In this document: positions 1-20,000 of the stretch, one piece after another | Numbering within the stretch: position 1 is the first letter of the stretch | Layout of the letters: each line of letters starts with the position of its first letter | Source of the DNA: Psammoneis japonica | Taxonomy: Eukaryota | Direction of reading: 5' to 3' | Assembly (NCBI GenBank): GCA_008632985.1 | Contig: QPGO01000021.1 | Coordinates: 740,980-760,979, forward strand | Length of the DNA stretch: 20,000 bases | The notes under the pieces: generated by a model | The model's input: only the letters and a program-made list of their open reading frames with translations | Told to the model about the DNA's origin: nothing | The model's database searches: none | Program-made: the position numbers and the translations under genes

Positions 1-520
1 CGGTCATTTTCCCACTTGAAGGAGGCGAGGGACCAGCAACTTTTTTCTGGCACCAGCGCGCCTCCTGTTGCTCTAACCCCTCCTTCCCAACAATTGGACA
101 TTTCTTGAATCTCCGTTAGAACATCCTCGTGCGTTGAGTCACAGGTGCCTGGAAAGCATGGGAGATCTGCATCATCGACGAAAGTGCAACACACATGGTG
201 GTGCACGTTCTTGGAGATCGGTGTTGTCACCCGAATGCCGCAACCCTCGGCTTTGAGCACGTTAATTGTTGGTGTGCTTGCAACGAGCCAAATGGCAGGT
301 GCAGCTCCATGGCCTTGAAAGATTCCTTGCAATGGGATCTCCATGGCACCGCATGGTTCTGCTGAGTCTCCGCATGCTGTTCTCACGCAATGCTTCATCT
401 GTGTGAGTGTTCCGATCATCATGAAGACCTCATCTTCTCCAGCTCCAAACCTTCTCATGCAAAGGGCAGCTGCCGCATGTGGGATTCGATCACAGCACGA
501 TTTGGCATCCGCACTGCATG
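1..520 (-). pseudogene. Reverse transcriptase domain of ORF2 (fragment)
   Basis: Manual minus-strand translation gives CSADAKSCCDRIPH (~518-477; family form SxDAKSCYDRI), PLQGIFQGHGAAPAIW (~336-290), the catalytic FVDDADL (~183-163) and WEGGVRATGGALVPEKSCW (~89-33). This frame is missing from the ORF track because it runs off the window. Confidence 0.93.
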
Positions 521-660
521 TTCATCCACTCCCAGGGGAATGACGCATGTTCCCTCCAGCACTCTTTTCGCGGCCGGGGAGTCCGAGTTGCAGCCAAAAT
601 CTTGAAGGAGAGGCGTCTTCATGAATGGGACAGTGCACTGACTTGTCTGAGTTTGTCCAT

Positions 661-770
661 TGCAGTGTGCATGCAGACAAAAGGTCATTTTTGTCACGCC
701 CTTTGTGACATTTAAAGGCTGTGACACGTCGCCGTGATGCATTGACTCTTGTCAGCAGCTGTGTGTTGCA
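661..770 (-). repeat. 3' LTR of the miniature element (110 bp)
   Basis: Ungapped alignment to 1004-1113 shows 11 mismatches, all transitions. It is preceded on the minus strand by the polypurine tract. Confidence 0.9.
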
Positions 771-924
771 CTCCTCCCCATGTGTCACGCGTCCATGCGG
801 CTCTTCACCAACGTGCACTGACACTGCACGGTTTTGGCGGAACAGTGTGGGTACGTGCGAAGGAACACACAGAACTGCACAGAGTTTTACGCGTTCGACA
901 GTGATCAACGTTGCTGCAGACAAC

Positions 925-999
925 TCCCACTCAGGGTTTCGAACCCCTGGCCTCCTGCCTGATGGTTGCCGGTGCGATGAACCACTCCGCTGTGAATTC
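925..999 (-). promoter_or_regulatory. tRNA-like segment with RNA polymerase III A-box and B-box inside the miniature element
   Basis: The minus strand has CAGCGGAGTGG (992-982; A-box TRGCNNAGYGG with the first T as C) and GGTTCGAAACC (945-935; B-box) within a CAGGG...CCCTG stem, 36 nt apart. The acceptor and anticodon stems do not form well, so this is not an intact tRNA. Confidence 0.6.
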
Positions 1000-1003
1000 A
1001 CAA

Positions 1004-1113
1004 TGCAGCATGCATGCAGACAAAAGGTTGTTTTTGTCACACCCTTTGTGACATTTAAAGGCTGCAACACGTCACCGTGATGCATTGGCTCTCATCAGCA
1101 GCTGTGTGTTGCA
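1004..1113 (-). repeat. 5' LTR of the miniature element (110 bp)
   Basis: Direct repeat of 661-770, with TGCA...TGCA termini. Confidence 0.9.
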
Positions 1114-2691
1114 CCATGTCTCGAACGTCCTTTGCCTTTGCGTGCTTCTTCCATTCCCTCTTTCGTTGAGAACACCTTGTCCACCCCGTTGGGTCCTGGT
1201 GCTGTGACCGTTTGGAGTGCCCGTCAGGGTTTGCCCGTCACTCTTTTGATGCGTCGGAACATTCTCTTTTGTCGGCAGCTGTGCCGAACAATTCGTTCCT
1301 CTTTTTCCTGGGTCGTGCCGTTCTCTTCTGCTCGTTTTGCGCACCGGATCTTAAACTCCTCTTGCCAAAGCTTTGCAGCTTGCTTCTTGAGTTTGCAGTG
1401 TCTTTTCATTGCCAGCTTGTGTTCTTCTGACACTTGGTGTGGTCAGAGCAGCAGGGCGTCCATTCTTCCAGTGCACTGCATTCGCCTGTTGATGATCTTC
1501 ATGCTTGCTCTCCGAAAATGGTGCAGCTCATGCACTGGTCTCCATGAGTGAATCTCTTTCCTCGCTTTGTTGATGACGTTGCTAGATTCCACCTCGTTCA
1601 TGTGCAGTTTCCGGCATTTTGCTTTTGCTTCTAGCCTGATCTGATGATTTGTTTGGAAGAGCCGCTCGCATTCTTGTTGTTCTGCAAGGCCAAAGTCGTC
1701 TGAGTTTTCCAGTCGAACAGCTCTTCGTGACAAATCATGCTTCAGAATTTGCGTTGCCACGAGCTGAACGTGCTTCTTCACCACCTTTGGATCGTTCAAT
1801 TTTCCTGCCAGTTGGTCTGAGATGGTCTCAGAAAGTTTTGGTGGGTTGAAACCCAGAGCGCTTGGTTTCGAAACATCAGTCCATGAGAGGCGATGATCGG
1901 AAGTACACAGTCGAAGTCACCAAAGCCAGTCATTCCTGCCTTGGTCACTTCCAAGGCGGGCGACACAAGAATTGCATCAACCGGAATGTCAGACCGGTTC
2001 TTGTTGCATGTTGCCACTGCTGGAAGATCCGGATGCGCAGATTTCAATGCGTTGATGAGGTGAAGCGACCCATGCCACGCAACAAAGGTTGACCCTCGGA
2101 CTTTTTCATTGAAGTCACCTCCAACTGCTGTGAGGTCTCCCTCTGCCTGCCATTCCTCAATGTGGTTTGCCAAGTCTTCTGGCACCGCTCGTCGTGGACA
2201 GTGCAGATCATTCTTTGAAAGAAGACATGTTTCTTGTTGGGAGTGTGCTCTGCCTGGATTGGCGTGGTTGTCCCCAACCGGTCGGCAAATTGTGACGATT
2301 CTTGTGTGCATTCCTGATTTGCCTCGAAGTCTTGCCCATGTCCATCTGCCTGGTCCCGTCGGGTCGTTGCCACTGGAGGTCAGGTGGTGGTTGACATGCC
2401 TTGTTGGCAGATGTCCTGCACCCCGTGCTGCCTCTTGTTTTCTGTTGAGCAGTGTTCGTTGGTTGTGACAAGAGAGCCATGTTTTGACAGACTTCTCCAC
2501 CGGTCTCTCCATTGCTCATGTTTCGGAATTCGCTTGAAGTTCAAGTTGATCTCTGTCAAGCCCATGATGTCAGAATGATGTTCTGTGATCCAATTCATCA
2601 TTCCTTTGTGTTTGTCCTCAGAAGAAAGTGATGCTGGTGGCCCACCAACATTGTGAAAAGCCACTCTGATGGCGTTGTGTCGTTTCATCAA
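1114..2691 (-). pseudogene. N-terminal part of ORF2: apurinic-like (EEP/APE) endonuclease plus linker, frameshifted
   Basis: Motifs spread over several frames: IRVAFHNVGG, DIMGLTEINLN, DPTGPGRWTW, RIVTICRP, GGDFNE, VDAILVS, SDHR (~1900-1889), followed by NDPKVVKK and KCRKLHM. Confidence 0.88.
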
Positions 2692-2899
2692 AGTGTTGTC
2701 ACCCCAAGCCTCATCCAGTTGACGACTGGTAGATTCTCGATTGACGTCCTCCTTTTGCGGTTGTCGTCGTGACTGCTGAGGATGGCAGGGATTGGGGATC
2801 CTGGCCCGCTCCCTTGGCCTGAGAGCTGGGATGGTGGTCTTCCAGGTCTCCTGGTTTGGAGTCCTTCTGGGCCGGACCAGTGTCTGGATCGTTCGCCGC

Positions 2900-5070
2900 T
2901 CATGGCTTTTCTAATTCTTGAATTGGCGCTTCACTCATTTCCTGCACCTCCTTTAGTTTTGCTTGGGTTGAAGGCGTTGTTTTGATGGATGCATCTTCCT
3001 CTTGTTCACATTCGTGGTGGTTCTCCAGATTTGCGAAGTCAAAGTTTGCCAAACGTTTCGTGACAGATGTGTGCTGTGTGTCGTCATCCTCATTCCTGAG
3101 ATGACCCACAGATTCCACATCAGCTGCTTGAGCCAGTTTTGCAGCAACTTCCTGTGCTGCTGCAGGTGGACCTTGTGCTCCATTCTGTCCGCTTGCATCT
3201 TTCTGAGCGTTGGCATCAGAGGACTTCCATCTGTCTGTTCCTTCCGTTTGTGCTTGCTCATCAGTCCACTGCTCCTCCATGCCCCGTGGGTCTTCCTCGA
3301 TCACATCTGACAACAATTCACCATCTTTAGATGTTGTGAGTCCAGTTTCTGGATCACACTCCGCATTCTCGTACATGGCAATCCCTGCAGCTGTGAACCA
3401 TGGTTCTGCGGATGCGCCGCAGACATGCAAACATTCCGGAACAATGTTGTTTGTCATTTGTGAGACTTGATCCACAGATTTTCTTGGGAATGTGATGACA
3501 TGATCGTTCGGCCTGTTCCACTTGACATCCAAGTGATGGATCAATGGAATGCACTTGTCCGGTTTGGCAGGGTCCGGCATTCGTTTCTGCATCAGATGGT
3601 GTCGCAGAGCTGTCTCTCCACCAGCGACTCTTGTCTTTTGGTCCGGGTTGTCAAGAAAGCCGAAATCAAGTTGTCCAATGACTTTCTGACAAAAGAAGTG
3701 TTGTCGTTTTTGAAGCTTGTCGATGTTCTCCTTGGTTTTGTCTGAGGCATGTTGCATGGTGGAGTTCAAGCAGCATGGAACAAAGCGCAGTTCGAGTCCA
3801 AGAACTTTTTTCCAAGCTCCTGCCCTCCACAGTCGTTCCGCTGCAAGTTTGACTTTGTGCGCTTTGCTGGACTCAACAATGATGTGGAGAGCTTCCGGGT
3901 TCTTGTCCGGCGTGTTTCTGTTGAAGGTGGGTCGTTTTCCGTCCCTTCCTGCAATGGATCTCCATTGAATTCCAAGACTGTCGTAGTCTCTGCCCAAGCC
4001 AAGAGCTTTGCTGAATTGTTTGTGCAATGTCCGCTTGCTCATTGTTTTGGTGCTTTGATGTGACCATCCAACACATTCAAAGCGCGTCAATTGACACGGC
4101 ATGGGGTTGCGTCCAATGGAGAATTTACCCATTTCCATGTCTGCAACCATCCCTGAGAGTTGCGAGCCGCAGTCTGCCACAGTTCTAAGATTGCAGTCTT
4201 CTGACACCTGGACGAGTCAAAGTTGGCAGCACATCGTGTGTTCGGCGTTGACTCTTGGGTTCAGGCAGTCTGCCCCCAGGAAGGCACTTGGAATTTCTCT
4301 TTCTTTTGCCAAACCTTCCGGAATGTCTTCTGGAGAAGTGACATCACCAAAGGCATCTTCTGGGTCAGGATCCCATGTGCCGATTCTAACATCTTGTCCA
4401 AGTGTCTCCTGCACTGTCGTGAAGGATTCTCGCAGGATGGAGGACACTGCTTTCAGAGGTTTTTTGGATGGTGGAATGGTCAGAAAGGCGTTGTGGCGTA
4501 ACTGACACCAAGGAATTCCTTCAGTTTGATTGGTGGCTTCTGTTTCTTGTGGTGTGTCAGTCTGCTGTGACTCCCCAACATTGGCTTCTTCCCCGATTTC
4601 TTCATCTTGCAGTGTGTCGGTTTGCTGCGAAGCCTGTTCATTCATCTCTCCTTCATTTTCTTTGTCTGATTCTGCAGAGTGATTCTTGCTTGTGAGTTGT
4701 TGAAGGGCATCTTCATTGGAGGATTCTTCACACATGTGGTCTTCTTCCGTGATTGCAATTTCTGCCGGAGTGATTGTTTTTGATTTTTCCTCCTTTTTGT
4801 TTTTCCTGCTTCGCGCAAAGGGTTTTTCATCGTCAGGTGTGAGTTCCCCCTCCTTGTTGTTGTCTTCCTTGGTGCATGAATTTTGCGCAGAGTTTGTGCG
4901 AGAGTTTTTTTTTTTACGGTCATCTGTTCATTGTTCTCGTTGTTTGTTTCCTCGTTGTGAGATCTTTCGATCATTTCATTCATTTGTCCTTTGCCCTTTT
5001 TCTTTTTGTCTCCTTTGCGTGGAGAGGTGTTTTTCTTTCCGCCGGTGCTTCTGCGTTTTGTGCCTGCCAT
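2900..5070 (-). pseudogene. ORF1 of the retrotransposon (basic N-terminus, acidic low-complexity tract, ~435-aa core), frameshifted
   Basis: Three consecutive minus-strand ORF pieces (5070-4642, 4735-4217, 4207-2900) lie directly upstream of ORF2 on the same strand. No catalytic motif was recognised, so the call is positional. Confidence 0.65.
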
Positions 5071-7930
5071 TGTGCCATTTTTTTAGCTTGTTGTTTGCAC
5101 GCACGTGCGAGTTGTGAGGCATGCAAATTTCATTCTCATGCAGATGTCAAAGCATGCCTCAAGAAGAAGGACAACAACAAGCCACATCGGGGCCAACTGA
5201 GCAGAGGAAGAGCACACTTCGCTGCCCAATGACTCGGTGACAAAAACTCTGCAAAGAACAATCCTTTGCAACAAGATGATGGGCAGAGTTGCGTCAAACA
5301 CAAAAGGCAGAACGCAAATGCAGCGAGTCAACGCTGCCATTGCCGTGCTGCCACGACCTGAACAAGTGAGACCTTCGGTCGGCAACTGACACGATTGTCA
5401 GATTGAACATTCACAACACTTCGTTGCACTGCTGTCGAGGGAACACATGCGTGTCTGCTGCTGATCCCATCCAGCTCTCTGGAGCGTCTGCTTGAAAATC
5501 GAAGGCTCATTTTAAATGGGAGACTGCCGCACCCACACAACTGGCGATGCTAAAGACTTCAGCCTGCCATCACCGTGCTTCGGACATTTTCGATCGGCTT
5601 CAGGCCATGTCTTCAGGCACTGCGTGCCTTCAGACATGTCCTTCTGTCCTCGGCCGGTGACGGTCGGCTTCAGTCGTCACTCTCGCCAGTCATTTGCAGG
5701 AATGACTTGTGTTGGTTCATCGTTTTTGCATCATGTGATGTTTGCAATGTGTGAGATTGGTTGTCTTCTCGGGGCGGTCGTCTTCGTCGCCTTTCGCGTC
5801 ACTGACCACACCATCATTTTGTGTCGTTTGCTCGGACTGCAAATCCGATTGGGTCTGTGCCTCTTGCAGCTCATGGCACATTTCCTGCGGAACCCATCAG
5901 TTGTTGGACTGACATTGTTGTTCGCAGCGCTGTGCATTTACAACACAGATGAAAAAGCAAACCCACGAAACGACACCGCGATCGAAGAGGCCGTCACCAT
6001 TGACAATGGCGTCTTCCAGCGGTCCCACAACAAGAATGCATCACCACCCATGCGACCAGCCAGCACGACGACTGCTCTGGCGGCATGCAGACAGTGGTCT
6101 GTTGCTCAGTCAGTGCGAGAGCCATTGAGTGTGCTGTGCATTCACAGATGTGTTCAGGTCTTTCATCTGTGATGTGGGTTCAGGTGCTGTGTGAACAAGT
6201 CCATGCTGATGGCAAGGGGCGGGGTGCAAGGGTGCCGTGCTCAGGGCCCGGCACAAAGCCGCTCCTCTGGGTGCCTCCTTTCCATGCTGGAAACAAGTGT
6301 GCCACTCATGAGGACTCATTTCTTCAAGCTTCAGAGTCAACCACAGCAGATGTGTCCCCCATCTTCATGTTCTTGTGGAGAACCTCGTCTTGGCTGTGGG
6401 TCGATGCGAGGCACATTTCTGCACACCCACGAAAGAAGTTACGATCTTCCAACACAATTTCTCTCCCAACAGAGCCAGCAACAAATGGCACCTGATTGGA
6501 ACAACAACAGGGTCCTTTGGTGCTCACACTCATCTTGCTGCACAGCAACTCTCTGCTGGCTCGAAGCTTCAGAGCGGCGCCCTTGACTGCTGCAGCAATG
6601 TGGGTCCAAGACTCTGCAGAAATTGCTTGGGTGCACCTGACTGCTGCCTTGTTTTGGTGAGTGCAGCTGCCAAAAAAGCCACCAAAAGCCCAGCAGCACA
6701 GGGTTCCTTGTTGGTGGAGAGCCGCGGGTGGAGATTTGCTCGCTTGCGTCACAAATGTGGCAAATGAAGTAATTTCAGATGCACACAACATTTCATTCAA
6801 GGGATTTTGTTCTGGAACGTGCATTCGCCGAAAATCTTGAGGCACCCTTTTTGCAATTTAGAAAGTTCAATGTCGACTTTTAACACCGGGTTTTTTGAAA
6901 GCTTCATCTGTGAACAGAGAGGAACTGAATCTCAACCTCTGACAATGAAGTTTGTTTTGAATCACCATCACAAACAGAGAAACAATGCCACACATTGGGG
7001 GCAAATCTCCACCGGTGGAGATTTGCTCCCAATGAGTAAATGCACGTGGCACACTTTGCGCAGATTGCACACTGTGTGACATTTTTTTGCTGTGTTCATT
7101 GTGTTGTTGCAAAAGTGCATGACACGTCACACATCCTCAAGTGGAGCAAATGAGATTTGCTCCCCTGGTGGTTGAAAGGTCAAGAGCCAGGCTGGCAGAC
7201 TTGGCAAGAAGCTTTGCACAATTCTTGCCAACACAAAGAGGAAAATCTTCTGGTGCTTTGATGGCCAAACATCCTCTCCCACTGCCTTTGACAATGTGCT
7301 TGAAGCCGCCTGTCTTTTTTCTGGAACATTGGTCGCAAAGCGGCCCTTGCTCAGCTCGGCACACAGCGCGCCTCTTTTTGTTGATCACAGTGTGTGTTGG
7401 TGGGTGCATCTGCAGCCAGTGTGCCATTAACTTCAACAGGCAGTTCGACACTTAGAGAAGAAAGCATGTTTGCCAGAGGAAAGGGCTCCTCTGTCTTTTT
7501 GTTTGTTCTTGTGTGGAGGTTTGCCACACGCTGGCTCTGCTCATTTGCAAAACAACGCTGTGAGCTCTGATCAGTCAAGAGCAAAGCAGGTGAGATTTCA
7601 AAGCCACTGCAAACTGTCTTTGTCTTGTTTCACACTTTGAATTTTCATGGTGTGTTGGGGTGCAGGGAAAGCGGGGAAGTCATGCTTGCTTGGCTGAGAA
7701 GGTTGTCCAAGCAGCAGGATGGCTTGCAAGCATTGGGGCCCCAGGGAGCTGCGTGGTGTGATGTTCTTTTTCGTTTTTTGTGCAGTGCCTGGAAACACAT
7801 TGCAGAGCTTTTGATCAATCATTCAGCGCAGTTCGCGGTTCGTGTTCGCGGATCGTCGCGTCGCATGCTTTTTCTTTTGAGCACCAATGACTCTGTGCGG
7901 TCAGTTTGTCTGTCATTTGGCACCCGCGGG
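5071..7930. mobile_element. Unclassified, TpA-depleted probable repeat/transposon-derived DNA (may include the LINE 5' UTR)
   Basis: Same compositional signature as the LINE, no recognisable protein, and contains short repeated motifs and palindromes. Confidence 0.45.
6993..7034. repeat. 42-bp palindrome (21-bp arms, one mismatch, no spacer)
   Basis: CATTGGGGGCAAATCTCCACC|GGTGGAGATTTGCTCCCAATG read directly from the sequence. Confidence 0.9.
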
Positions 7931-8003
7931 CATACTGTAGTGTTGTTTCGAATGTGGAATGAATTCCCGATCTCTACTCTCTAGTAGCTCTGCTACCGTA
8001 GAT

Positions 8004-8027
8004 AGAGAGAGAGAGAGAGAGAGAGAG
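8004..8027. repeat. (AG)12 microsatellite
   Basis: Perfect dinucleotide run. Confidence 0.95.
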
Positions 8028-8434
8028 CTGTTAGGCAACAGCAACGAATTTGGTCCCGAGTCTTTTCAGAGTTGTTTTCTCATCACAATGTGTTGGGAGC
8101 TGTAACGTCGTGGATGACTTTTTGCACTCGGGTGAGGAGTCACACCCTTTGCTCTGCAAACAACTTGCTAGAGGTCGAGAAGCATCAATGAGAGCTAGAG
8201 AGGGTACATTCATGCATTTGTTTAGGTCTTTCATGTAAGATATGCGTTCAGGTGTAAATAACTCCGTGACATCGACTACAGATAAGGAATGGAGGGCACA
8301 TACCTGGATCCATAAACCATTTCTATACTGTTTTCTCTCCGCGGTGAACCGGTGCCTTTGGCTCATCCAAGAGGGTAAAGCTTATAATCTGAGTTTCTGG
8401 GATACGTGATGGCCCCAAAGCCAAGAACTCTTTT

Positions 8435-9310
8435 TTAGCAATATAGATCTTCAGCCCACGCCTGCTTGACTCGTGGGTCGAGGTTCGACAATTGGTTCAG
8501 TCTCTTTTCTATAAAGTCGACATTCCCCTCCTCTTCCGATTTCATTTCAAGTGGCGCTTCGAAACGAACATGCATTGAAGCCACGCTCAATTTCTTACGC
8601 ATGGCATGTACAATAGGGACCAACTGAGCATCGTATGAATCACCTCCTTTATAAGAGGTCCACAGGTTGGCATGTTTGGCCTTGAACGAAAGCGGGCCAA
8701 AATGCCAGTCAATGCGTGGAAGAATGTGCTTGGCATTGTCCATTTCCTCTTGGATACCCGCGTCAAACACAGGCAAGCTGAAATTCAGTTTTGTAAGTTC
8801 CTTCTTTGTGACAGCATCTAAAAACAGATTGCCATACATTTCCGAGTGAAATTGTTCACACGGATAAGTCTCCTGAAACAGAGACAAAGACCGATACGGA
8901 ATAATCACATCTTCGCTTCGTTCTTGAACGCCACGCCAATGATGCACCATGTTTACTTTCTCGGGTTCTTGCCAGCACAAAATCGTATCTTCTCTGACTC
9001 CAAGTAGACCGCTCGCGATCTCTGCGGCCTCTCGCAGAGCCGCGCCCTTTTTCCCCTTTGCCGTCTGGCGTTGAACTAATGCCCCAGAAGACAAGAGCTG
9101 ATTGTGCACCTCGTCACTGGGAGAGCCGTCCACCACCACAACTGCAGTCCCATTAGTTCGGCACTCTGCCAGCATGTTCATACACATCTGGAATCGAATG
9201 TCGGCGGTAGACTCATAACGTGTGACGGTGAAAATCAAGTAGCCACGAGACTTAATAAGCTGCTCCAAAGATTCCGGGGTAGTGCTCATGACGATGCAAG
9301 TCCGTTGCAA
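8435..9310 (-). CDS. Uncharacterised GT-A-fold (nucleotide-diphospho-sugar transferase-like) protein, 291 aa; start could be Met at 9289
   Basis: Intact single-exon ORF with normal amino-acid composition. It has VVVVDGSPS (GT2-like VVDDGS), GKKGAALREAA (GKGxA-like) and LCWQEPEK at the position of the DxD motif. Confidence 0.7.
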   Translation of the reverse strand: MQRTCIVMSTTPESLEQLIKSRGYLIFTVTRYESTADIRFQMCMNMLAECRTNGTAVVVVDGSPSDEVHNQLLSSGALVQRQTAKGKKGAALREAAEIASGLLGVREDTILCWQEPEKVNMVHHWRGVQERSEDVIIPYRSLSLFQETYPCEQFHSEMYGNLFLDAVTKKELTKLNFSLPVFDAGIQEEMDNAKHILPRIDWHFGPLSFKAKHANLWTSYKGGDSYDAQLVPIVHAMRKKLSVASMHVRFEAPLEMKSEEEGNVDFIEKRLNQLSNLDPRVKQAWAEDLYC

Positions 9311-9702
9311 TGCTGTAAGGTAGCTTCAAGACGTCCGAAACGAATGTTTCTCGGGTTGCTGTCATCGCCTCGCTCTCGCTCGCTCCTCTTGGAAATCTTC
9401 GATCGGATATCTGGAGGATCTGGAGGACTTCCTTTTCCTAGTGTTCTCTCTCTTTCACTATACGTTTGTATTAACATCTTATAGGAAGACCTCGTTTCTG
9501 GAGCTATCACAGAACGCAAAACGACGATAGAAAAAGCAACATCAATCCTGATGACAGAACCAGCCTGAAACTCCTATTTGCTTCTGTGTTTCTTTTAGGG
9601 GATGTGTCAACGGAAGGAAACAGCGTGCACTGTGGCTTATTGCAGCTATAGTCATCGATTTTGTTCGCCGTTTTTAAAAAAGAAAACGTTGCACCGTAGG
9701 AC

Positions 9703-12700
9703 ATGAGGATGACACCCACTGGTCACAGTCAAAGGCGATTGCCTTTGGAAGGACGATTCTTTGCTCGGTCTCATGAGCTCAGCCGAATACGTTCGTGTCT
9801 CGATTCCGAGCCTTCAGGGGTAAAAGTTGTGCTTGTTTCAGGCTGTAGCGGTGTCGGAAAATCTAGATTGCTTCGTGCCGCTCTAACTTCGAGTACCCCT
9901 CGATTGATTGGATGCGCAAAGTTTGACTCGCGGTTTGCTCCGTTGGAAGCCATTCAAGACTGTGTTGTCGACATTGTTCGAAAGATCCAAGCGAATGAGG
10001 CCCTTTTGCATTTGATTCGTCAGCGACTTGGAGATAGCATGGAAGATGAGCACAAAGACATGTTGATGTCTGTGATTCCAGAAACGAGGGCTGTGCTTCA
10101 GTTCGAAACAGATGAAGAGGAAAAGACGAATGAGGAGAGGTCGGTAGCCCATACCGGTACAATGAGCAATAGTAAAGAAAACATGCTGCAGCTTCAAATG
10201 GCCCTGAAGGCCTTCTTGTTTGCAGTGGCTGGATTTGAGAAGGTTGTCCTTTTACTTGACGATCTTCAGTGGTGTGGTCAAGATTCCTTTGATGTTATCT
10301 TGTCTGTGTTTACAGAGCCAAATGCCTCCAATATGGTGCTTTGTGCGTCGTATCGGGATAACGAAATCAGGAGTGAGCTAATAATGTTTATGAACAAGCT
10401 AACAAACTCTCTACCATCACCGGCGATTTGCTCTGTGAGTCTGAAAGCCTTCGATGCAGCGTCCATCAATGACATGATGGCTTCCCTTCTAAATGCTGAC
10501 TCTAACGAAGAAACGTCCAACCTTGCCGGGATCATTCATCAACGCACCGACGGGAATATTTTTTTTGTAAGGCAGTTTCTTGAAGAGTTACAAAGAGAAG
10601 GGCTTCTCCGGTACAACTTCATTGCTTCTAAATGGGAATATGACGTACAACAGATCCAAGACAAAACAGCTCTCTGCGAGAACATTGTTCAGATCGTCAC
10701 TAAAAGAATCCATCGATTAGACCCGCCCATCCGGGATATCTTAAAGCTACTTGCCTGCTTTGGATGTCGGAGTAATGCTTCGACCTTGGAAATGTGTCAA
10801 TCGGTCTTTTCTGAAATCTCGAATACGGGTGAGCTACTTCAAGTGGCATGTACCCAAGAGCGTCTACTGGACGATCTTGGAAATGGATGGTATAAGTTCA
10901 GTCACGACAAAATTCTCGAATCTGTCAAGTCCATGCTACCTACTGGAGAGGAGCTCAATAAGCTACACTGGGATATCGGGATGTTCCTATTTGACGCTCT
11001 TGATGGTGCAACCACAGATCGCGACCGCCTTCGTTTCATGTGCGCGGACCAGATCAACTTGGGCGGAGCTCGTTTCGTCGAGGGAGAAAAGCATCGTGTT
11101 CAGCTTGCCAAGCTCAACTTGGACGCTGCCAAGTCGGCGTCGAGGCTATCGGCGTTCCATCCAGCTTGCAGATACTGCCAAGCTGGAATTGACATTCTTG
11201 GAGAGAACATGGCCGGTTCTTTGAACGTCGCGCTCGACTTGTATGTTCACTTTGCCGAAATGCTGTTTTGTTGTGGTGATATGACCCGAGCGAGAGAATA
11301 TTGTGACAAGATCTTTGCATCTGGGACACTGGAGCACAAAGTCCGATGCTACGTGACCATGTTGCAAATTCTCTTGTCAGAGGCAAAGAATCATGATGTT
11401 GTCGACTTTGGGTTACGGGCTTTGAAAGCACTTGGCGAAACCGTACCCCCAAAGCCCAACAAACTTCAAGCCCTCTATAGCTACAAGATAATGGCAAAAA
11501 TGCTGAACGATTCCACTCCTGAAGATATCCTCAGCTTGCCGATCATGAAAGACCCTGGAAAGGCCGCGCGTACTGAAATTTTGTTGGCTATGGTGATGCC
11601 TATCGTTCATCTCGCAATGACCAATTTGTATACGGTAGTGGTTGAGCGGATGCTAAGTCTAACCTTTCAGTACGGGTTGACAACCGCAGCCCCTGAGGCC
11701 TTCGCCATAGCAGGAGCAGAAGTCATTGCACACCGAAATGATCTTAAGCATGCATATCAGCTTGGGAAGCTGGCCGTTTCCTTGGCGGATCGACTGAAAG
11801 CAACGAGTGTCAAAGCAAAGGTATATATGTGGACTAGCGCCTTCACGCAATGGTGGATGGAGCCGCTTGCTCACTGCCTTGAATCAGCACTGAAAGGCTA
11901 TCATGCTGGACTTGCTGTTGGCGATCAGCATTACGGCTTTCATTGTATTTCAGCGTATGCTCTAACGTACGGATACTCGGGAATTCCGTTGTTACCTCTT
12001 CTTGATGATCTTGATAAATATGGTCAGCAGATGATTGATTATGGACAGTTCATGGTCTTGTTTTGCATCATTCCCATGTGGCAGTTTGTCTTGAATCTTT
12101 GTGGGAAATCTGACTCGCCGCTTGATATGTCTCGAGGCTACGCTCTCGACAAGCAGAAGCTGGCGGGGAACGAAGAGAGGATTGGAGAACAAGCTTGTTG
12201 GTCATTTCTGATGCAGTTGTGCTTTTACTTTGATGACATCGAGAAGGCTAGTGATCTCTCCCACCGGCTCAACGTCTAGACATCGGATTTGCGAGAGCCG
12301 AAGTGTTTTTCCCTGCCAGAGTATTCTTTTTCTCCCTAATCGCGATTGAGCAGTTCCGTCGCACAGGAAAGCGAAAGTTCAAGTTGGAAGCGAAGATGCA
12401 TGTGGAGCTGATAATGAAATGGATAAAGCTCGGTGCGAAAAATTTGGTGCACAAAGGTATGATCCTTCAGGCTGAGATGGACTCGCTTACTTCAAAAGAC
12501 CCTCATGTCGTTCGATCAAAGTACGATAAGGCATTTTCATGCGCCACGAGGAGTGGCTTTTTGCAAGATGGAGCTCTCGCGTGTCAACTTGCGGCTTCTT
12601 TTTGCAAGAAGGTGTTACCAGACTGCATGAACCAGTATGTTGTAAAAGCGTGGGAGCAGTGGATGGAGTGGGATGCGATTGCAGTGGCAAAGCACCTAGA

Positions 12701-12848
12701 AAAAAAGTATGCTGGCATTCTTGGTAGCACCAAATTGATCCGGTTGGGTGATCAAGGCTCGCTTCTTGGGAGAAATGGATTTCGGAGTCGTTCCCGTTTT
12801 TCTGAATCTGCTGCTAAGAAGCATGAGAAGTTGAACTATGGACCTTAA
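9703..12848 (+). CDS. STAND-class P-loop ATPase (AAA_16 / COG3899-like) with helical TPR-like C-terminus, copy 1; one frameshift at ~12269
   Basis: Motifs are FFARSHE, Walker A GCSGVGKS, Walker B VVLLLDDLQW, SYRDNE, TDGNIFF, YKFSHDKI and LAKLNLDAA. ORFs 9703-12279 and 12303-12848 are joined by restoring one base (CGGCTCAACG versus CGGCTTCAACG in copy 2). Confidence 0.88.
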
Positions 12849-13376
12849 GGCTGCTCCTTTTTGGTCGATGTTCCCGAGAGAGACAAACATCCAGTCATAA
12901 GGATCTTCTAGTGGTGGATGGCCGCCATCGAGACCAAATGTCCAAAACCGCAAAAGAGACAGTCAGCATTTCTTGGTAACGTTGAACCTTTCAGCTTTCA
13001 CGAGTAGGGAGTGAAGAGCTCTAACTCGGTCCTGTCCTTTTCCTAGAGTGTTCTCTCTCTTTCACTACTAGTTCTGTATTACCATCTCATAGGAAGACCT
13101 CCTTTCTGGAGCTACCTATTACAGCCAGAACAACGCGCAACTATCTCGCACGCAACTCGCAACAATCCGCAGAGGTCTCGCAGAAGATCAGATCACCGCG
13201 ACGACGGTCCTTTGCACCCACATCCTCTAGCTAGCGGTATTTGCTTCTGTGTTTACTTTTAGGGGATGAGTGAACAGAAGGCAACAGTGTGCACTGTGGC
13301 TTATTGCAGCTATGATCATCGATTTCGTTCGCCGTTTTTAAAAAAGAAAACTTCGCACCGAAAGACCTAATAAAGA

Positions 13377-16300
13377 ATGACACCCGCTGGTCACAGTCAA
13401 AGGCGATTGCCTCTGGAAGGACGATTCTTTGCCCGGTCTCATGAGCTCAGCCGAATACGTTCATGTCTCGAGTCCGAACTTCAGGCGTAAAAATTGTGCT
13501 TGTTTCAGGCTGCAGTGGTGTCGGGAAGTCGAGATTGCTTCGTGCCGCTCTGACTTCGAGTACCCCTCGATTGATTGGATTCGCAAAATTTGACTCGCGG
13601 ATTGCTCCGTTGGAAGCCATTCAAGACTGTGTCGTTGATATTGTTGGAAAGATTCAAGCAAATGAGAATCTTTTGCATTTGGTTCGTCAGCGACTTGGCG
13701 ATAGCATGGAAGATGAGCAGAAAGACATGTTGATGTCTGTCATGCCAGAAACGAGGGCTGTACTTCAGTTCGAAACGGATGACGAAGAAAAGAAGCAAGA
13801 TGAGAGGTCAATGACGAAGACTATTAGCAGCAATAAGCAAAACATGCTACAGCTTCAAATGGCCCTGAAGGCCTTCTTTTCACGGTAGCTGAATTTGAGA
13901 AGTTGTCCTTTTACTCGACGATCTTCAGTGGTGTGGTCAAGATTCCTTGGATATTATCTTGTCTGTGTTTACAGAGCCAAAGGCCACCAACATGGTGCTT
14001 TGTGGGTCGTATCGGGACAACGAGATCACGACTGAACTAAAGACTTTTATGAACAGCATGTCTGACTCTCTAGCATCGCATGTGATATGCTCAGTGACGC
14101 TGAAGGCCTTCGATCCAGCAGCCGTCAATGACATGCTGGCTTCGCTTTTGAGTGTTGACTTGAAAGGAGAAACGTTCGAGCTAGCGAATGTCATTCATCA
14201 GCGCACCGATGGGAATATCTTTTTTGTGAGGCAGTTTCTTGAAGAGTTACAACGAGAAGGGTTTCTTCGATACAACTTCATGACCTCTCAATGGGAATAT
14301 GACGTGCAACAGATCCAAAACGAAACGGCACTCTGCGAGAACATTGTTCAGATCGTCGCTCAAAGAATCCATCGACTAGACCCGCCCGTCCGGGATATCT
14401 TAAAGCTACTTGCCTGCTTTGGATATCGGAGTAATGAATCGACCTTGGAAATGTGTCAATCGATCTTTCCTGAAATCTCGAATGTGGGCGAGTTACTTCA
14501 AGTGGCATGTACCCAAGAGCATCTACTGGACGATCTTGGAAATGGATGGTATAAGTTCAGTCACGACAAAATTCTCGAATCTGTCAAGTCCATGCTACCT
14601 ACTGGAGAGGAGCTTGATAAGCTACACTGGGATATCGGGATGCTTCTTTTTGGCGCTCTTGATGGTGCAACCATAGATGGTGACCGCCTTCGTTTCATGT
14701 GTGCAGACCAGATCAACTTGGGCGGAGCTCGATTCGTTAAGGGAGAAAAGCATCGTCTTCAGCTTGCCAAGCTCAACTTGGACGCTGCCAAGTCGGCGTC
14801 GAGGCTATCGGCGTTCCGTCCAGCTTGTCGATACTGCCGAGCTGGAATTGACATTCTTGGAGAGAATGTCGCCGGTTCTTTGCATGTTGCGCTGGACTTG
14901 TATGTTCACTTTGCTGAAATGCTGTTTTTGTTGTGGTGATATGACCCGAGCAAGAGAATACTGCGACAAGATCTTCGCGTTTGGAACACTGGAGCACAAA
15001 GTCCGATGCTACGTGACCATGTTGCAAATTCTCTTGTCAGAGGCAAAGAATCGTGATGTTGTCGATTTGGGGTTACGAGCTTTGAAAGCACTTGGCGAAA
15101 ATGTACCCAAAAAGCCCAACAAGCTTCAAGCTCTACATAGTTACAAGAGAACAACCAAAAGGCTGAACGATTCCACTATTCAAGATATTCTCCTCGTACC
15201 GGTTATGAAGGACTTCGTCAAAGCGGCTTGTATTGAAATCATGCTTGCAATGGAGTTACCTATAGTTCATCTCGCAATGATCAATTTGCACACAGTGATT
15301 GTTGATCGAATGCTAAGTCTCACTTTCCGTCATGGATTGACTACTGCAGCCCCTGAAGCCTTTGCAGTAGCAGGGGCGGACGTCATTGCACAGCGAGACG
15401 ATCTCAAGAACGGATACCAGCTTGGGAAACTAGCTGTCTCCTTAGCGGACCGACTAAAAGCGACAAGTGTGAAGGCAAAAGTTCACATGTGGTTCAGTGC
15501 TTTCACTCAGTGGTGGGTGGAGCCGCTTGCCCAGAGTCTCGATTCTGCTTTGAAAGGTTACAATGCCGGACTGGCGGTCGGCGATCAACACTACGCGTTT
15601 CACTGCATCACTGCCTACACCACTGCCTACGTCTATTCGGGCATTCCGCTGTTACCTCTTCTTGATGATCTTGATAAATATGGCCAGCAGATGATTGACT
15701 ACGGGCAATTTATGGTCTTGTTTTGCGTTATTCCAATGTGGCAGTTTGCCTTGAATCTTTGTGGGAAATCTGACGCGCCGCTTGACATGACTCGAGGCTA
15801 CGCCGTCGACAAACAGAAGCTGGCGGGAAATGACGAAAAGATTGGAGAACAAGCTTGTTGGTCATTTCTGATGCAATTGTGCTTTTACTTTGATGACATC
15901 AAGAAGGCCAGTGATCTGTCCCAACGGCTTCAACGCCTTCAAATAGGAATTACACGGGCCGAAGTGTTTTATCCGACAAGAGTGTTCTTTTTTTGCCTTA
16001 CTGCGATCGAGCAGTTTCGTCGTACAGGAAGGCGAAAGTTCAAGCTGGAAGCGAAGAAACATATGCGGCAGATTACGAAATGGATAAAGCTCGGTGCGAT
16101 CAATTTAGTACACAAAGGAATAATTCTTCAAGCCGAGATAGACTCGCTAACTTCAAAAGACCCTGTTGCCGTTCGATCGAAATACGACAAAGCGATTTCA
16201 TGTGCCACCCGGAGTGGCTTTTTGCAAGATGGAGCTCTCGCGTGTCAGCTCGCAGCATCGTTTTGCAGAAAGGTTCTGCCAGACTCTATGGAACAGTACG

Positions 16301-16521
16301 TATTCAATGCCCACGAAAACTGGATGGCCTGGGACGCAATTGCAGTAGCACATCACCTTGAAATGAAGTATTCTGACATCCTTGGCGACAAGGCGAGCTT
16401 ACGTTTGATGCGATCGGGCAATGAAGCTTCTCAGAAGCGTGGATGCAGCGGATTCCGAAGTCGCCCCCGCTTTTCCGAATCTGCCGCTAGGAAGCATGAC
16501 CACTTAGACTACGAGAAGTAG
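13377..16521 (+). CDS. STAND-class P-loop ATPase, tandem paralog (copy 2); four 1-bp indels
   Basis: ATG at 13377 gives MTPAGHSQRRLPLEGRFFARSHEL, collinear with copy 1 through to the stop at 16521. Indels relative to copy 1 are at ~13479 (-1), ~13880 (-1), ~13902 (-1) and ~14927 (+1). No in-frame nonsense codons were seen once these are corrected. Confidence 0.82.
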
Positions 16522-16799
16522 TGGTTGGCTCGTTGATCGGAAAAGGTGCCAGATCCTTGTAGTGCTTTAGGAATAGTGCGGGAGTCAGTGTTTTATCGTC
16601 GAGGCAACGATGAGGCGCTACAACGTTGCCACGTCGTCTCTTTTGCACATCGTCAAGGCACTATATAACTGGCCAGAATCCATCATGCCTGAAAAAGGTT
16701 CCTTGCGCCCACATTAATAGACATAATAAGTAATTGTTTGCTACAATAATGGAAACGATGGAGTGTACACACTCACACAAGACGCATTCTATAGAGCAC

Positions 16800-19105
16800 C
16801 TACAGTTGCCCTTTCTTGTATTGAATAAACCTTGACGCATTCAGCGCGGTCTCCTTCCACTGTTCCTTGTCCTGCGGAGTGCCACCGCCGCCACTGATTC
16901 CTTTTTTGAATGGAGGTAAAGTCCGCTGAAAGTTTCCCAGCACATCCAGCGAGACAAAGACGTCCGCATGAACGTCATCTTCACCATAAATGTCCATGAG
17001 AGCATTGAACGCTTCGCTCTGAACCATGGTGGACGAGGATGCCAAGGATGTCAAAAGAGCAGAACAAACCTTGGTGTTGACTTGTGTGGAATGCGTCTCG
17101 GAACCGCACAAGATTCCCAGCATACTCGCTGCGTCGCGTGTAGGAATGGATAATTTGCGTTTTGCAGCAAGGACACGAGGAAATCCAAATGGTCTTGTTC
17201 GATCTGGGAACGCAACACGGGCCGCGTCCTTTGTGCCACCACCATGGCGCTGCTGATACCCTCCAAAACTCCGTCAATCGATGCCACGGACGACACCGAC
17301 AAGAGCGCCTGTAGGCACTGCACAAGTTCGTTCCACACGGCAATCGGATCCGACGACCGCCACGAGGGCAAATTGGCAATGCAGTTTCCGATGCAACCAC
17401 CACACTTGGAAATCAAATCGGCGACCTCCTGCATCACATAAAGCGGGACGATATTATTCTCGTTTGGTTGATGAGGCGAACAGAGATTCTTCAACAAGAC
17501 GACAAGACCATCGGCGAGTCCCTCTTGTACAAGAATGTCCGCAACGGCTTGGTCCAAGGGATGCATCTCGAGTTGCTCTTGTTGTTGGTCCGCCGCGCCT
17601 TGTTGCGCCGCCAAGAGTTGCGCCTCTTGTGTCGGTCCCCAATCGTCTTCCTCCATGGCGTCTTCCATATCCACGGATGCATTGTCAATACTATCTTCTT
17701 GTACCAAGCTACCCGTCAAATTTGCCGATATCTCTAGTGACAAGTGCAAGGGTAGCAGAGCCGAATGCCACGCCTGTCGAGCCTTGTCCATGCTTTCTCG
17801 GCAATCCTTGTTGGATTTTGCTTCGTCTTGCTGCATGGGTTCGTCGTCCTTGTCAATCTTCATTTCACCACCATTGTCCATATTATTTGCGTCTTGCTGT
17901 TTCCCTTCACCTTCTCCAGCAATTGCCATTTTTTGACTAATTTCCTCCTTGGCTTGTTTTTGACGCCTTGCAATCAATCTCGCAGGTTCTTTGCGCCGAT
18001 TGACCGTTTCAATCACTTGCTGCTCCAAAGCGTCGTCGGCCTGTTCCTTTTTATAAGCCTCTCGTGTTTGCACAATATTGGCAATCAATCCTTGTGCCGT
18101 CTCCTTATCGTAGGTTAGGTGATTCTTTAAGAGTGGAACGACAGACGCTTGAATTTGGTTTTGAAGAATTGAAATCAACTCGGATCGAGCAGAGTCGTTT
18201 TCATGACTACACAATACCATTTGACGAATCGACACGAGACATCCCGCGGCATGAAGTTGTGCGGGTGGAGTCAGCTTGTTGTTGCTGCTGGAATGATGAC
18301 AAGATGACACCAAAATATCAATTCCATGTCGAAACGTCGAGCCGTCGTTGTGCATCATCCATGCCTCGAGCAGATCCATGTTATCGTCCAAGGCGGAATG
18401 CAAGGTTCGAACGGCATACACCGTCACGTCTTGGGTCCATTCCAACATCATCTCGTCGCTGTCATCATCTTCTTGTTGTTGCTGTACAGCCTTGCTTTGC
18501 CTTCCGCTCAATTCCTCTTGTCCCAATACTAAAAACTTGACAAGCATCGTGACAAATTCTGTAGGCTTGGCCATGATGCGCTCTAAAGCAAGAGGATTGA
18601 TTTCGACTAGAGCACAGAGTGCGTGTAGGCATTGAACCGTGACGGCCCACCAATGATGAAGCCGTTGTTTTGACCGTTTGTTGGATGCAGTATTATCTTT
18701 TGCAGACGTAGAAAGCGCCGCCAGACATTGTTCAAGTCGACTCATCAAGACCACCGTCCATCCGGCCGTCACGTCGTTGTTGCTACTGCTGCTATTGCCG
18801 TAGTACGACACATAATTGGCACAACACCCGGCAGCCGCTTGCGAGCATTCCAAATCGGAATCCATGACGCGTTCCAATACGACTTGAAGAACTTGACTGG
18901 ATATTTTGTAGTCCTTGGAATGCCCGAGTTGAATGGGATGAAACAGCGTCGTGGCGAGCGCCGACAGGGCACCGTGACGAACTTGTGCGTTGCCATGACG
19001 GAGTTTTTTAATCAAGGATGATGTCGTTGTTGCAGAATCATTATTGTTGTTTTGTTGTTGTTGTTTGTTATGACGGTTCCTACGACGACGGCCCTGTTTT
19101 CCCAT
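16800..19105 (-). CDS. HEATR3: HEAT/ARM-repeat protein, HEATR3/Syo1 (symportin-1)-like; one frameshift near 17155
   Basis: The N-terminus is basic (MGKQGRRRRNR, ATG at 19105) and is followed by VRHGALSALA and ERVMDSDLECSQAAAGCCANY, with acidic insertions. C-terminal SEAFNALMDIYGED and ETALNASRFIQYK resemble the HEATR3/Syo1 C-terminus as I recall it. One extra A in GCAAAT joins ORF 19180-17051 to the frame of 17123-16800. Confidence 0.72.
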
Positions 19106-19550
19106 GGTTGATTTTTTGTTCTCTGGAGTGAAAAGATCTGGGATAAAAAAAATGAGTGGCGCAAAAAAGTTGTGGCGCAAAGATCGGCAGTCTTTGCGTC
19201 GACCGTGTCGGAGGGAATTTTCCGCAATTCACTTGTATTCGGATCTATATAACATATTGAATTTTCAATTTTCTGTAGACTTGCAGTATCTTTCGGTTTC
19301 AGTACTGAAATCCTGTAGAATCTACGGCCGCGCATGTCACGGGATGAGAATGAAGAGTCGCGGCCACGAACGAACCTGGAACCTGGATGACCTTCCCGCT
19401 GTCATTGCTTGTTAGTGGAAAAGGTCACACTCCACGATACACAGGAGTCTCTATTAGGTCGCTCCACGATACATTGGAGTCTCTATTATTGCTTTGTCTC
19501 GCGCGCCGCAACAACACAACGCACCACAACAACACATGCAAGCTGCCACC

Positions 19551-20000
19551 ATGATGATGTCTGAAGAGCAAGCCGAAAAAGCCGAAGAGCTTCAGGCTTC
19601 TCGGTTCCCCGCATGGACCGCACTCATGATTTTCTCGTGTGTCGCCTTGATTGCACACACGACAACCGATTACGTCGATGACAGTTCGTCTGAAAAGTGG
19701 GTCACGTCGGTGTGTGCCATTTCACTGGGCATTTCCTTTTGTGCCATGGTGGCACACTTTGTACCCTCATCCAACTTTGTGGGAGAACCCGCTGAAGGTG
19801 GTGGTAAGGCAGCTTGCAGTCTGAATCGCATCATTCACATTCGTTTCTTTTTCATTAGAGTTCGCATCCGCAACACCGACAGCACCAACATTGCTCTCTC
19901 ACAATTTCACAACATGTCATCTTACCTTGCCGTTATTCTCTCTTTTGCCAGTCGCCTTCTTCATTATAATTTTCTGGGCAGCTGGTTTGCCGTCATTATG
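19551..20000 (+). CDS. Multi-pass membrane protein of unknown function, 5' part; exon 1 19551-19803, intron 19804-19951, exon 2 19952->20000
   Basis: Start context is GCCACC-ATG (in-frame upstream ATG at 19536). Exon 1 encodes MMMSEEQAEKAEELQASRFPAWTALMIFSCVALIA...KWVTSVCAISLGISFCAMVAHF...EGG. The donor is GTAAG and the acceptor is pyrimidine-rich ...TTTTGCCAG. The spliced frame continues as the hydrophobic VAFFIIIFWAAGLP. Confidence 0.72.
   Translation, partial: MMMSEEQAEKAEELQASRFPAWTALMIFSCVALIAHTTTDYVDDSSSEKWVTSVCAISLGISFCAMVAHFVPSSNFVGEPAEGGGKAACSLNRIIHIRFFFIRVRIRNTDSTNIALSQFHNMSSYLAVILSFASRLLHYNFLGSWFAVIM

Follow-up and report, generated by a model that had tools for sequence, protein, structure and literature searches.

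A mini LTR retrotransposon within a LINE-like element

The window, i.e. the whole stretch of 20,000 nt of Psammoneis japonica contig QPGO01000021.1 analysed here, carries one non-autonomous mini LTR retrotransposon (TRIM) that sits inside a LINE-like element, as well as an interrupted alpha/beta-hydrolase gene, a dispersed repeat and a host-gene region (Table 1). The TRIM shows two direct terminal repeats of 110 bp with TG...CA ends, is shorter than 1 kb (453 bp here, mostly 446-449 bp elsewhere) and lacks coding sequence. With regard to the 4-6-bp target site duplication (TSD) of such elements, 4 bp are identical in 66 of 85 elements and differ by one mismatch in six more, and a 5-bp duplication was seen in none. 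The element probably reads on the minus strand, its orientation being set by the purine tract at 771-779; no primer-binding site was recognisable by sequence inspection. The motifs at 935-992, which by eye and from the general consensus we take to be tRNA-like A and B boxes, gave no ARAGORN or Rfam match that would assign a tRNA identity; a T-arm-like hairpin folds within this segment, and the whole-segment z of -0.31 versus shuffles is not significant. The search for an autonomous partner gave a sole candidate, with LTRs 6.7 kb apart, which is a TRIM split by another insertion. A TRIM copy (C3, L115:1637-8006) is interrupted by a 6.4-kb TA-poor insertion, the frames of which look by eye like those of a tyrosine-recombinase retroelement and gave no Pfam match.

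Table 1. Features of the window, with positions counted from its first nucleotide
Feature	Position	Strand	Remarks
Host LINE-like retroelement carrying the TRIM	1..5114	-	Total length 8,048 bp, of which the first 2,933 bp precede the window; ~18-bp TSD, short-repeat tail; TA O/E 0.098
TRIM, left copy of the 4-bp TSD	657..660	.	Identical to 1114-1117
LTR (3' LTR if the element reads minus)	661..770	-	Doublets 666-667, 686-687, 722-723, 750-751; CpG 697-698, 730-731; orientation inferred from the purine tract
Putative polypurine tract adjoining the LTR	771..779	-	Visible in the sequence; reading from general LTR-element anatomy
TRIM internal region, non-coding, 233 bp	771..1003	-	A few bases longer than in most copies; TA sites erased as in the LTRs
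Presumed tRNA-like B-box (935-945) and A-box (982-992), perhaps an RNA polymerase III promoter within the element	935..992	-	By-eye motifs, general consensus
LTR (the element's probable 5' LTR)	1004..1113	-	Doublets 1009-1010, 1029-1030, 1065-1066, 1093-1094
TRIM, right copy of the 4-bp TSD	1114..1117	.	Matches 657-660
Interrupted alpha/beta-hydrolase gene, upstream part	5115..5535	-	TA-erased on this allele only; 21 of 22 contig 237 TAs read CA or TG, accounting for 21 of 24 differences
MITE-like repeat of ~465 bp, dispersed and TA-poor, containing hairpins	6722..7187	.	About 39 other places at 79-88 % identity among the matches listed; inverted repeat 6990-7037
Host-gene region spared by the process (control)	7930..20000	.	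Includes an 84 % identical tandem gene duplicate

Helenus/TRIMp3 TRIMs have tRNA-derived promoters within their LTRs according to the accessible part of Kojima 2024 (PMC10886601), in which no diatom or stramenopile is mentioned. The element described here resembles them in its size below 1 kb, two LTRs, purine tract, lack of coding sequence and tRNA-like A/B boxes, and its 4-bp TSD is that of animal Helenus, whereas the boxes are internal here and not in the LTRs, and a clear primer-binding site is missing (PMC10886601).

A gap-free alignment of the two LTRs of the window shows 11 differences over 110 positions (6, 7, 26, 27, 38, 62, 63, 71, 85, 90 and 91), all of them transitions, while alternative offsets (999-1010) give 76-89 mismatches each. 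This bears out the first-pass annotation, which had described 11 indel-free transitions including four reciprocal TG/CA doublets and two CG/CA differences, all present as stated; the eleventh difference, A/G at position 85, was missing from its description. By site class, eight differences fall on TA sites, two on CpG, one next to a TA site and none elsewhere.

The surrounding DNA falls into two parts, i.e. positions 1 to about 7,900 with a TpA O/E of 0.05-0.16 per kb (CpG 0.43-0.88), and the gene-rich part from 8001 with a TA O/E of 0.34-0.64 per kb. The ends of the LINE-like element were read from the empty allele, and four other copies of it continue across 659/1119 without a TRIM. It gave a weak endonuclease match, below the cut-off (PF03372, E 0.0048), and no Pfam match for a reverse transcriptase, and is probably LINE-like in class. 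Downstream, 7190-7930 is TA-poor on both haplotypes and gave no repeat match among the best 40 of 139 candidates; the TA-poor block stops sharply near 7930, and spill-over from the 6722-7187 repeat is possible. The tandem pair at 9575-16499 consists of STAND/AAA_16 genes, of which the second copy has its frame in pieces and a normal TA content.

Ancestral TA and mutation after insertion

A 23-nt LTR motif matched the genome 372 times, compared with no match for a reversed control, which suggests some 180 elements; searching the 91.4-Mb genome with the DNA of the TRIM gave about 40 near-full copies among the best 40 of 321 candidates. In a first family set of 29 elements and 58 LTRs (L014 being left out as a duplicate of L013), 258 of 264 differences between LTR partners were transitions, the four doublet sites read TG or CA except for seven instances of TA and one of CG, and true CG sites were still CG in 53-55 of the 58 LTRs. 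Using TA at one doublet as a search pattern pointed to 29 places, including a near-unmutated copy on contig 9 (L033/L116) that holds 35 TAs and whose LTRs differ at one site. The reference is this real copy and not a built consensus. The main set comprises 78 of 85 distinct elements, the reference itself being left out along with six that are truncated, gappy or strongly diverged; since it includes copies picked for a TA, TA retention is overstated.

Each doublet had been proposed to derive from a TA mutated on opposite strands in the two LTRs. The contig 9 copy indeed holds TA at all four doublets (26-27, 62-63 and 90-91 in both LTRs, 6-7 in one) and CG at 37-38 and 70-71, and the check suggested at the time, i.e. 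whether unmutated copies hold TA or CG, came out in favour of TA, with CG occurring only three times at the four sites across 156 LTRs. Among the 2496 reference TA sites in the 78 copies, TG was read 1197, CA 874, TA 387, CG 14 and other states 24 times, whereas the 1716 reference CG sites read CG 1523, TG 94, CA 84 and other 15 times. In 33 copies from the LTR-motif list, TA survives at 126 of 1034 sites and CG at 632 of 718, corresponding to a TA:CpG loss-rate ratio of 16.5, and eight of the nine copies without CpG decay or transversion retain just 2-10 of 32 TAs. The copies form a graded series from 35 TAs to one.

Two parts of the first-pass annotation did not stand. The TGCA...TGCA ends had been expected to revert to TGTA...TACA, but the contig 9 copy has TGCA...TGCA as well, positions 3-4 are CA in 146 and positions 107-108 TG in 154 of the 156 LTRs, and TGCA ends already obey the TG...CA rule. 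The two CG/CA differences, which it had listed beside the doublets, are ordinary CpG decay, with CG found at these sites in 109 and 143 of the 156 LTRs.

Evidence for the timing is given by the LTR partners. At TA sites mutated in both partners (75 pairs), these agree in 419 of 657 cases, compared with 395 by chance and 657 if the changes had been inherited. Therefore, about nine tenths of the changes arose separately after insertion; as concordance lies slightly above chance (permutation p 0.014), roughly a tenth may have been inherited from the donor or homogenised. Both TG and CA occur in 151 of 151 LTRs with at least four mutated sites. DNA transposons, which move without an RNA step, are affected too, i.e. 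ten of 16 piggyBac-type transposase matches lie at a TA O/E of 0.18 or less, the other six being not erased (0.37-0.56). Taken together, the independence of the partners, the involvement of both strands and the erased DNA transposons point to change in the chromosome after insertion, as the first-pass annotation had held and as the family, DNA-transposon and allele comparisons support.

The flanks of the contig 9 copy are already erased (1 and 0 TA per 500 bp). Considering that an unmutated copy sits in erased flanks, erasure recurs and lags behind insertion. None of the 85 TRIM target duplications contains TA or shows a reciprocal TG/CA pair, which suggests that the TRIM mostly landed in already erased DNA. 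A contig from sequencing run X1 spans the site of the unmutated TRIM (L116:4731-5217) and represents either an allele without the insertion or another, related copy of the repeat that flanks it; that insertion may therefore be hemizygous and recent.

Allele comparison and mutational signature

Contig 237 matches positions 5,649-20,000 of the window at 99.06 % identity, with no substitution in 13,000-20,000, and would, judged by its sequence, be either a second haplotype or recently duplicated DNA. The LINE-like element is missing from it, leaving an empty site with an ~18-bp duplication. The hydrolase gene (PF00561; E 9.4e-7 for the uninterrupted copy) is of low copy number, with only a 77 % identical paralogue elsewhere (among the best 40 of 85 candidates). 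Over 2.4 kb, the empty allele has 96 TAs, of which the insertion allele shows 80 as TG or CA and keeps 14; one TA change runs in the opposite direction, and 26 of 126 CpGs have decayed on the insertion allele. At 67 aligned sites, the paralogue has TA at 35 and the state of the insertion allele at four. Tyrosines in the main frame drop from 13 on the empty allele to one on the insertion allele.

The loss of TA from one allele indicates that non-repetitive DNA was mutated in cis. The intact allele lies between two erased blocks and is itself unerased. In the control region, the two haplotypes show no TA to TG/CA change and 421 TA/TA matches, and the spared 3.2-kb tandem duplicate (9.6-16.5 kb) retains 62 TA/TA sites with seven reciprocal doublets. 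One-allele erasure and a spared tandem duplicate argue against the sensing of homology. At this single locus, the trigger could be the loss of transcription after gene disruption and not spreading from the insertion. Upstream of the intact hydrolase gene on contig 237 (L145:3902-4259), we also observed a dispersed repeat of ~358 bp with intact TAs that is absent from the window haplotype; found in about 40 places at 82-100 % identity, it is young and offers a second family for a time series.

In the hydrolase alleles, A>G reaches a per-strand frequency of 0.42 when T precedes; for A outside TA sites, it is 0.011 with a preceding C, 0.002 with G and 0.0012 with A. The following base matters as well (TAC 0.53, TAT 0.50, TAA 0.28, TAG 0.27), with TAY changing about twice as often as TAR. 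In the 78 TRIM copies, 2071 of 2496 TA sites are changed to TG or CA, alongside a minor class of CA and TA-adjacent changes, and TTTAAA mostly resists change (kept in 65 and in 72 of 78 copies). YTAR contexts dominate the TAs surviving in erased DNA; the context ratios for these residual TAs take gene-rich DNA as baseline, which inflates the TAA and TAG ratios. An A following TA is changed in 60 of 203 cases when TA became TG, in 14 of 209 when it became CA and in none of 204 when TA was kept, and a T preceding TA shows the mirror pattern. Same-strand choice is in excess at a distance of 2 nt (z 7.3) and in deficit at 3 nt (z -4.4), effects that can reflect context change or tandem events. No strand coordination was found at 4 nt or more, and processive coordination was rejected. 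Strand choice nevertheless differs between LTR site 78 and internal site 123 at equal local context, so that context does not explain everything. TA retention and CpG decay are correlated negatively (Spearman -0.36).

Sequencing reads touch on the same signature. In run X1, which may be the source sample and hence non-independent, A>G is seen at 14 and T>C at 20 places, compared with six others. A 177-nt RNA contig from run X5 (depth 3.3) keeps six of its covered TA sites and changes one, and the four contigs of run X3 mostly keep their TAs, both being too thin as support or as proof of transcription; the pieces of run X2 are 31-mers or flank and uninformative.

We are highly confident about the direction of the change, its post-insertion timing, its occurrence on both strands, its independence of reverse transcription, its allele specificity, its speed exceeding that of CpG decay and its preferences, i.e. 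TA far above CA and CA above AA/GA, TAY above TAR, with frequent tandem TAA to TGG changes.

Candidate mechanisms, related systems and LTR dating

We consider it fairly probable that the locus as a whole, a TRIM within a LINE-like element, reflects a post-insertion, locus-targeted process that would convert TpA to TpG or CpA in the chromosome, site by site and on either strand, the base change being A:T to G:C at the A of TpA. Targeting would follow silenced, TE-containing chromatin in cis and not sequence homology, and would reach retroelements, DNA transposons and the insertion-broken host gene allele while sparing a near-identical intact copy. Whether the agent is a TadA/ADAT-type enzyme recruited to CG-methylated chromatin, which would deaminate adenine in DNA to hypoxanthine that is then fixed at replication, we regard as an evenly balanced matter. 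The purity of transitions, the preference for a 5' T and a 3' pyrimidine and the short tandem events fit deamination of this type, and the accompanying CpG decay fits CG-methylated chromatin. The natural substrate of TadA is UACG and evolved TadA forms prefer TA (accessible part of PMC12265680), and DNMT5 methylates and silences diatom TEs (accessible part of PMC9998398).

The genome holds 27 C5-methyltransferase matches; several of those on C297, C301, C10 and C28 are clustered and carry internal stops, and are possibly TE- or virus-borne. Enzyme profiles were searched with PF00383 (nine matches) and PF14437 (five), which found low-copy deaminases of ordinary types without expansion, and with PF12851 (TET/JBP), which had no match in this genome and was silent in the control genomes too. 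TadA-like and ADAT2-like genes are present, the latter being of a universal housekeeping type. In the alignment, the TadA-like protein retains Asp where DNA-active variants carry Asn according to the accessible part of Mettrop et al. (10.64898/2026.01.13.699255).

Several other explanations have to be weighed against the cis-acting conversion of TpA. Ordinary deamination of an ancestral CpG accounts for the two CG/CA differences and for the decay of about 10 % of the real CG sites, but as the origin of the doublets it has next to no probability, since CG is almost never found there, the unmutated copy has TA and real CGs are mostly intact. RNA or cDNA editing by an APOBEC- or ADAR-like activity during retrotransposition, i.e. 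before integration, could draw on the slight excess of concordance between LTR partners and on the plus strand holding more TG than CA (1197 versus 874). The single LTR pair of the window is insufficient to exclude such editing; the family, DNA-transposon and allele comparisons exclude it, as every LTR is mutated on both strands and erasure extends to DNA transposons and a host gene, the host-gene allele refuting it as the main route, which makes it extremely improbable. As far as the available text goes, APOBEC editing of LTR retrotransposons is a deaminase-like hypermutation with dinucleotide preference as well, but one that acts C-to-U on cDNA before integration, is more than 10-fold strand-biased and is absent from DNA transposons, none of which applies here (Knisbacher and Levanon, PMC4866542). 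A homology-sensing 'reverse RIP', in which duplicates would be recognised by pairing and then mutated, agrees with the erasure of every repeat family examined; it is nonetheless very unlikely, given a low-copy host gene erased on one allele next to an untouched near-identical partner, an 84 % identical tandem duplicate that retains its TAs and an unmutated copy in a family with 372 LTR matches.

Since any A>G change reads as T>C on the complementary strand, adenine lesions, thymine lesions and polymerase errors look alike at the sequence level. Under the same targeting, translesion polymerases of the Pol eta/iota type could introduce errors when filling repair patches at methyl-CpG mismatches in heterochromatin. 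Pol eta-type WA hotspots are known from antibody genes; TA counts as such a hotspot whichever strand is read, TA loss goes together with CpG decay, and the tandem TAA to TGG changes (60/203 versus 0/204 when TA is kept) could be tandem misincorporations. Such patches begin at deamination mismatches (accessible part of PMC7884765). We nevertheless judge this route unlikely, as WA includes AA, which away from TA changes at 0.0012 compared with 0.42 for TA, as repair patches should leave some of the same-strand coordination that is absent at 4 nt or more, as copies without CpG decay are already erased and as transversions at TA are near absent (24 'other' among 2496). Modified thymines occur in repeats of some protists, and oxidised T (5-hydroxymethyl- or 5-formyluracil) at TpA of silenced DNA would mispair with G and yield T>C, inseparable by sequence from opposite-strand A>G; without a TET/JBP match in this genome, and bearing in mind the equally silent control genomes, we hold a thymine lesion to be improbable.

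The erasure can be compared with RIP of ascomycetes, in which dense dinucleotide-specific transitions arise in repeats after insertion, spill over to neighbouring DNA and inflate LTR divergence, as is the case here. However, RIP is C-to-T at CpA and makes TpA from CpA/TpG, is triggered by homology and mutates both duplicates, whereas here TpA is destroyed (O/E 0.05-0.16, window 1-8000), i.e. the direction is opposite, one allele is mutated, a tandem host duplicate is spared and strand coordination along a copy is lacking. A closer parallel is B. natans, where TpA-restricted hypermutation of integrated NCLDV and virophage DNA is described in the available part of Mettrop et al. (10.64898/2026.01.13.699255); there it was measured de novo in two viral inserts at a rate about 1000 times background and in some lines only, TpA is partly depleted (rho 0.45), and ADAT2 was proposed without proof. 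Both systems confine A>G/T>C to TpA, on both strands of chromosomal DNA, in foreign or silent regions, and in B. natans TE domains are also enriched among TpA-poor coding sequences. In contrast to this rhizarian with its viral inserts, a diatom-like stramenopile is affected here, with near-complete loss (O/E 0.05-0.16) that extends to LTR, LINE-like and DNA elements and, allele-specifically, to a host gene, and with secondary CA changes, tandem TAA>TGG changes and CpG decay alongside (10.64898/2026.01.13.699255). The matches of a protein search that agree with a diatom-like lineage included a diatom (Trieres) and a pelagophyte. A sparing of genes as in B. natans holds here except for the disrupted hydrolase allele, and the graded series of TRIM copies is compatible with an ongoing process of that type.

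No report of TpA loss in diatom TEs was found in the open-licence PMC and bioRxiv literature; new here are the unmutated family member, the independence test on LTRs, a host gene erased on one allele only and the tandem signature. To our knowledge, no natural enzyme system has been established that deaminates adenine across silenced genomic DNA. TpA erasure may serve genome defence, and it is tempting to speculate, at somewhat less than an even chance, that diatoms, together with B. natans and possibly a large part of SAR, possess an adenine DNA editor guided by chromatin, i.e. a dedicated TadA/ADAT-type enzyme that would deaminate TpA in double-stranded DNA across a silenced domain in cis, broken host genes included. 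If so, this would amount to natural adenine base editing of genomic DNA, and to a defence with polarity opposite to RIP and a different trigger; the enzyme, if found, would be a natural adenine editor capable of acting on double strands. The locus provides a test bed, with an unmutated copy, a graded series and a base-level context signature, and the allele pair separates cis-chromatin targeting from homology sensing.

There are also practical consequences. LTR partners differ on average at 10.9 of 110 positions (75 pairs), i.e. about 10 % overall, compared with 24 of 2,619 (0.9 %) at non-CpG C/G columns, in agreement with the earlier expectation that LTR divergence overstates age. It was rejected as a clock, since LTR distance is unrelated to CpG decay in the internal region (rho 0.15, p 0.20). 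In such genomes, dates based on LTR divergence are inflated about tenfold and no longer track age, majority-built repeat libraries will give TG/CA at sites that were TA in the mobile form, and the TA content is a simple marker of silenced or dead alleles.

Finally, in nine of the ten least-mutated copies (L055, L043, L058, L049, L040, L045, L059, L106, L097 and L050, several of them picked for a TA), the LTR beside the tRNA-like boxes, i.e. the 5' LTR, had lost more TAs than the other; a promoter-side start of silencing, a barrier or mosaic copies could account for this excess.
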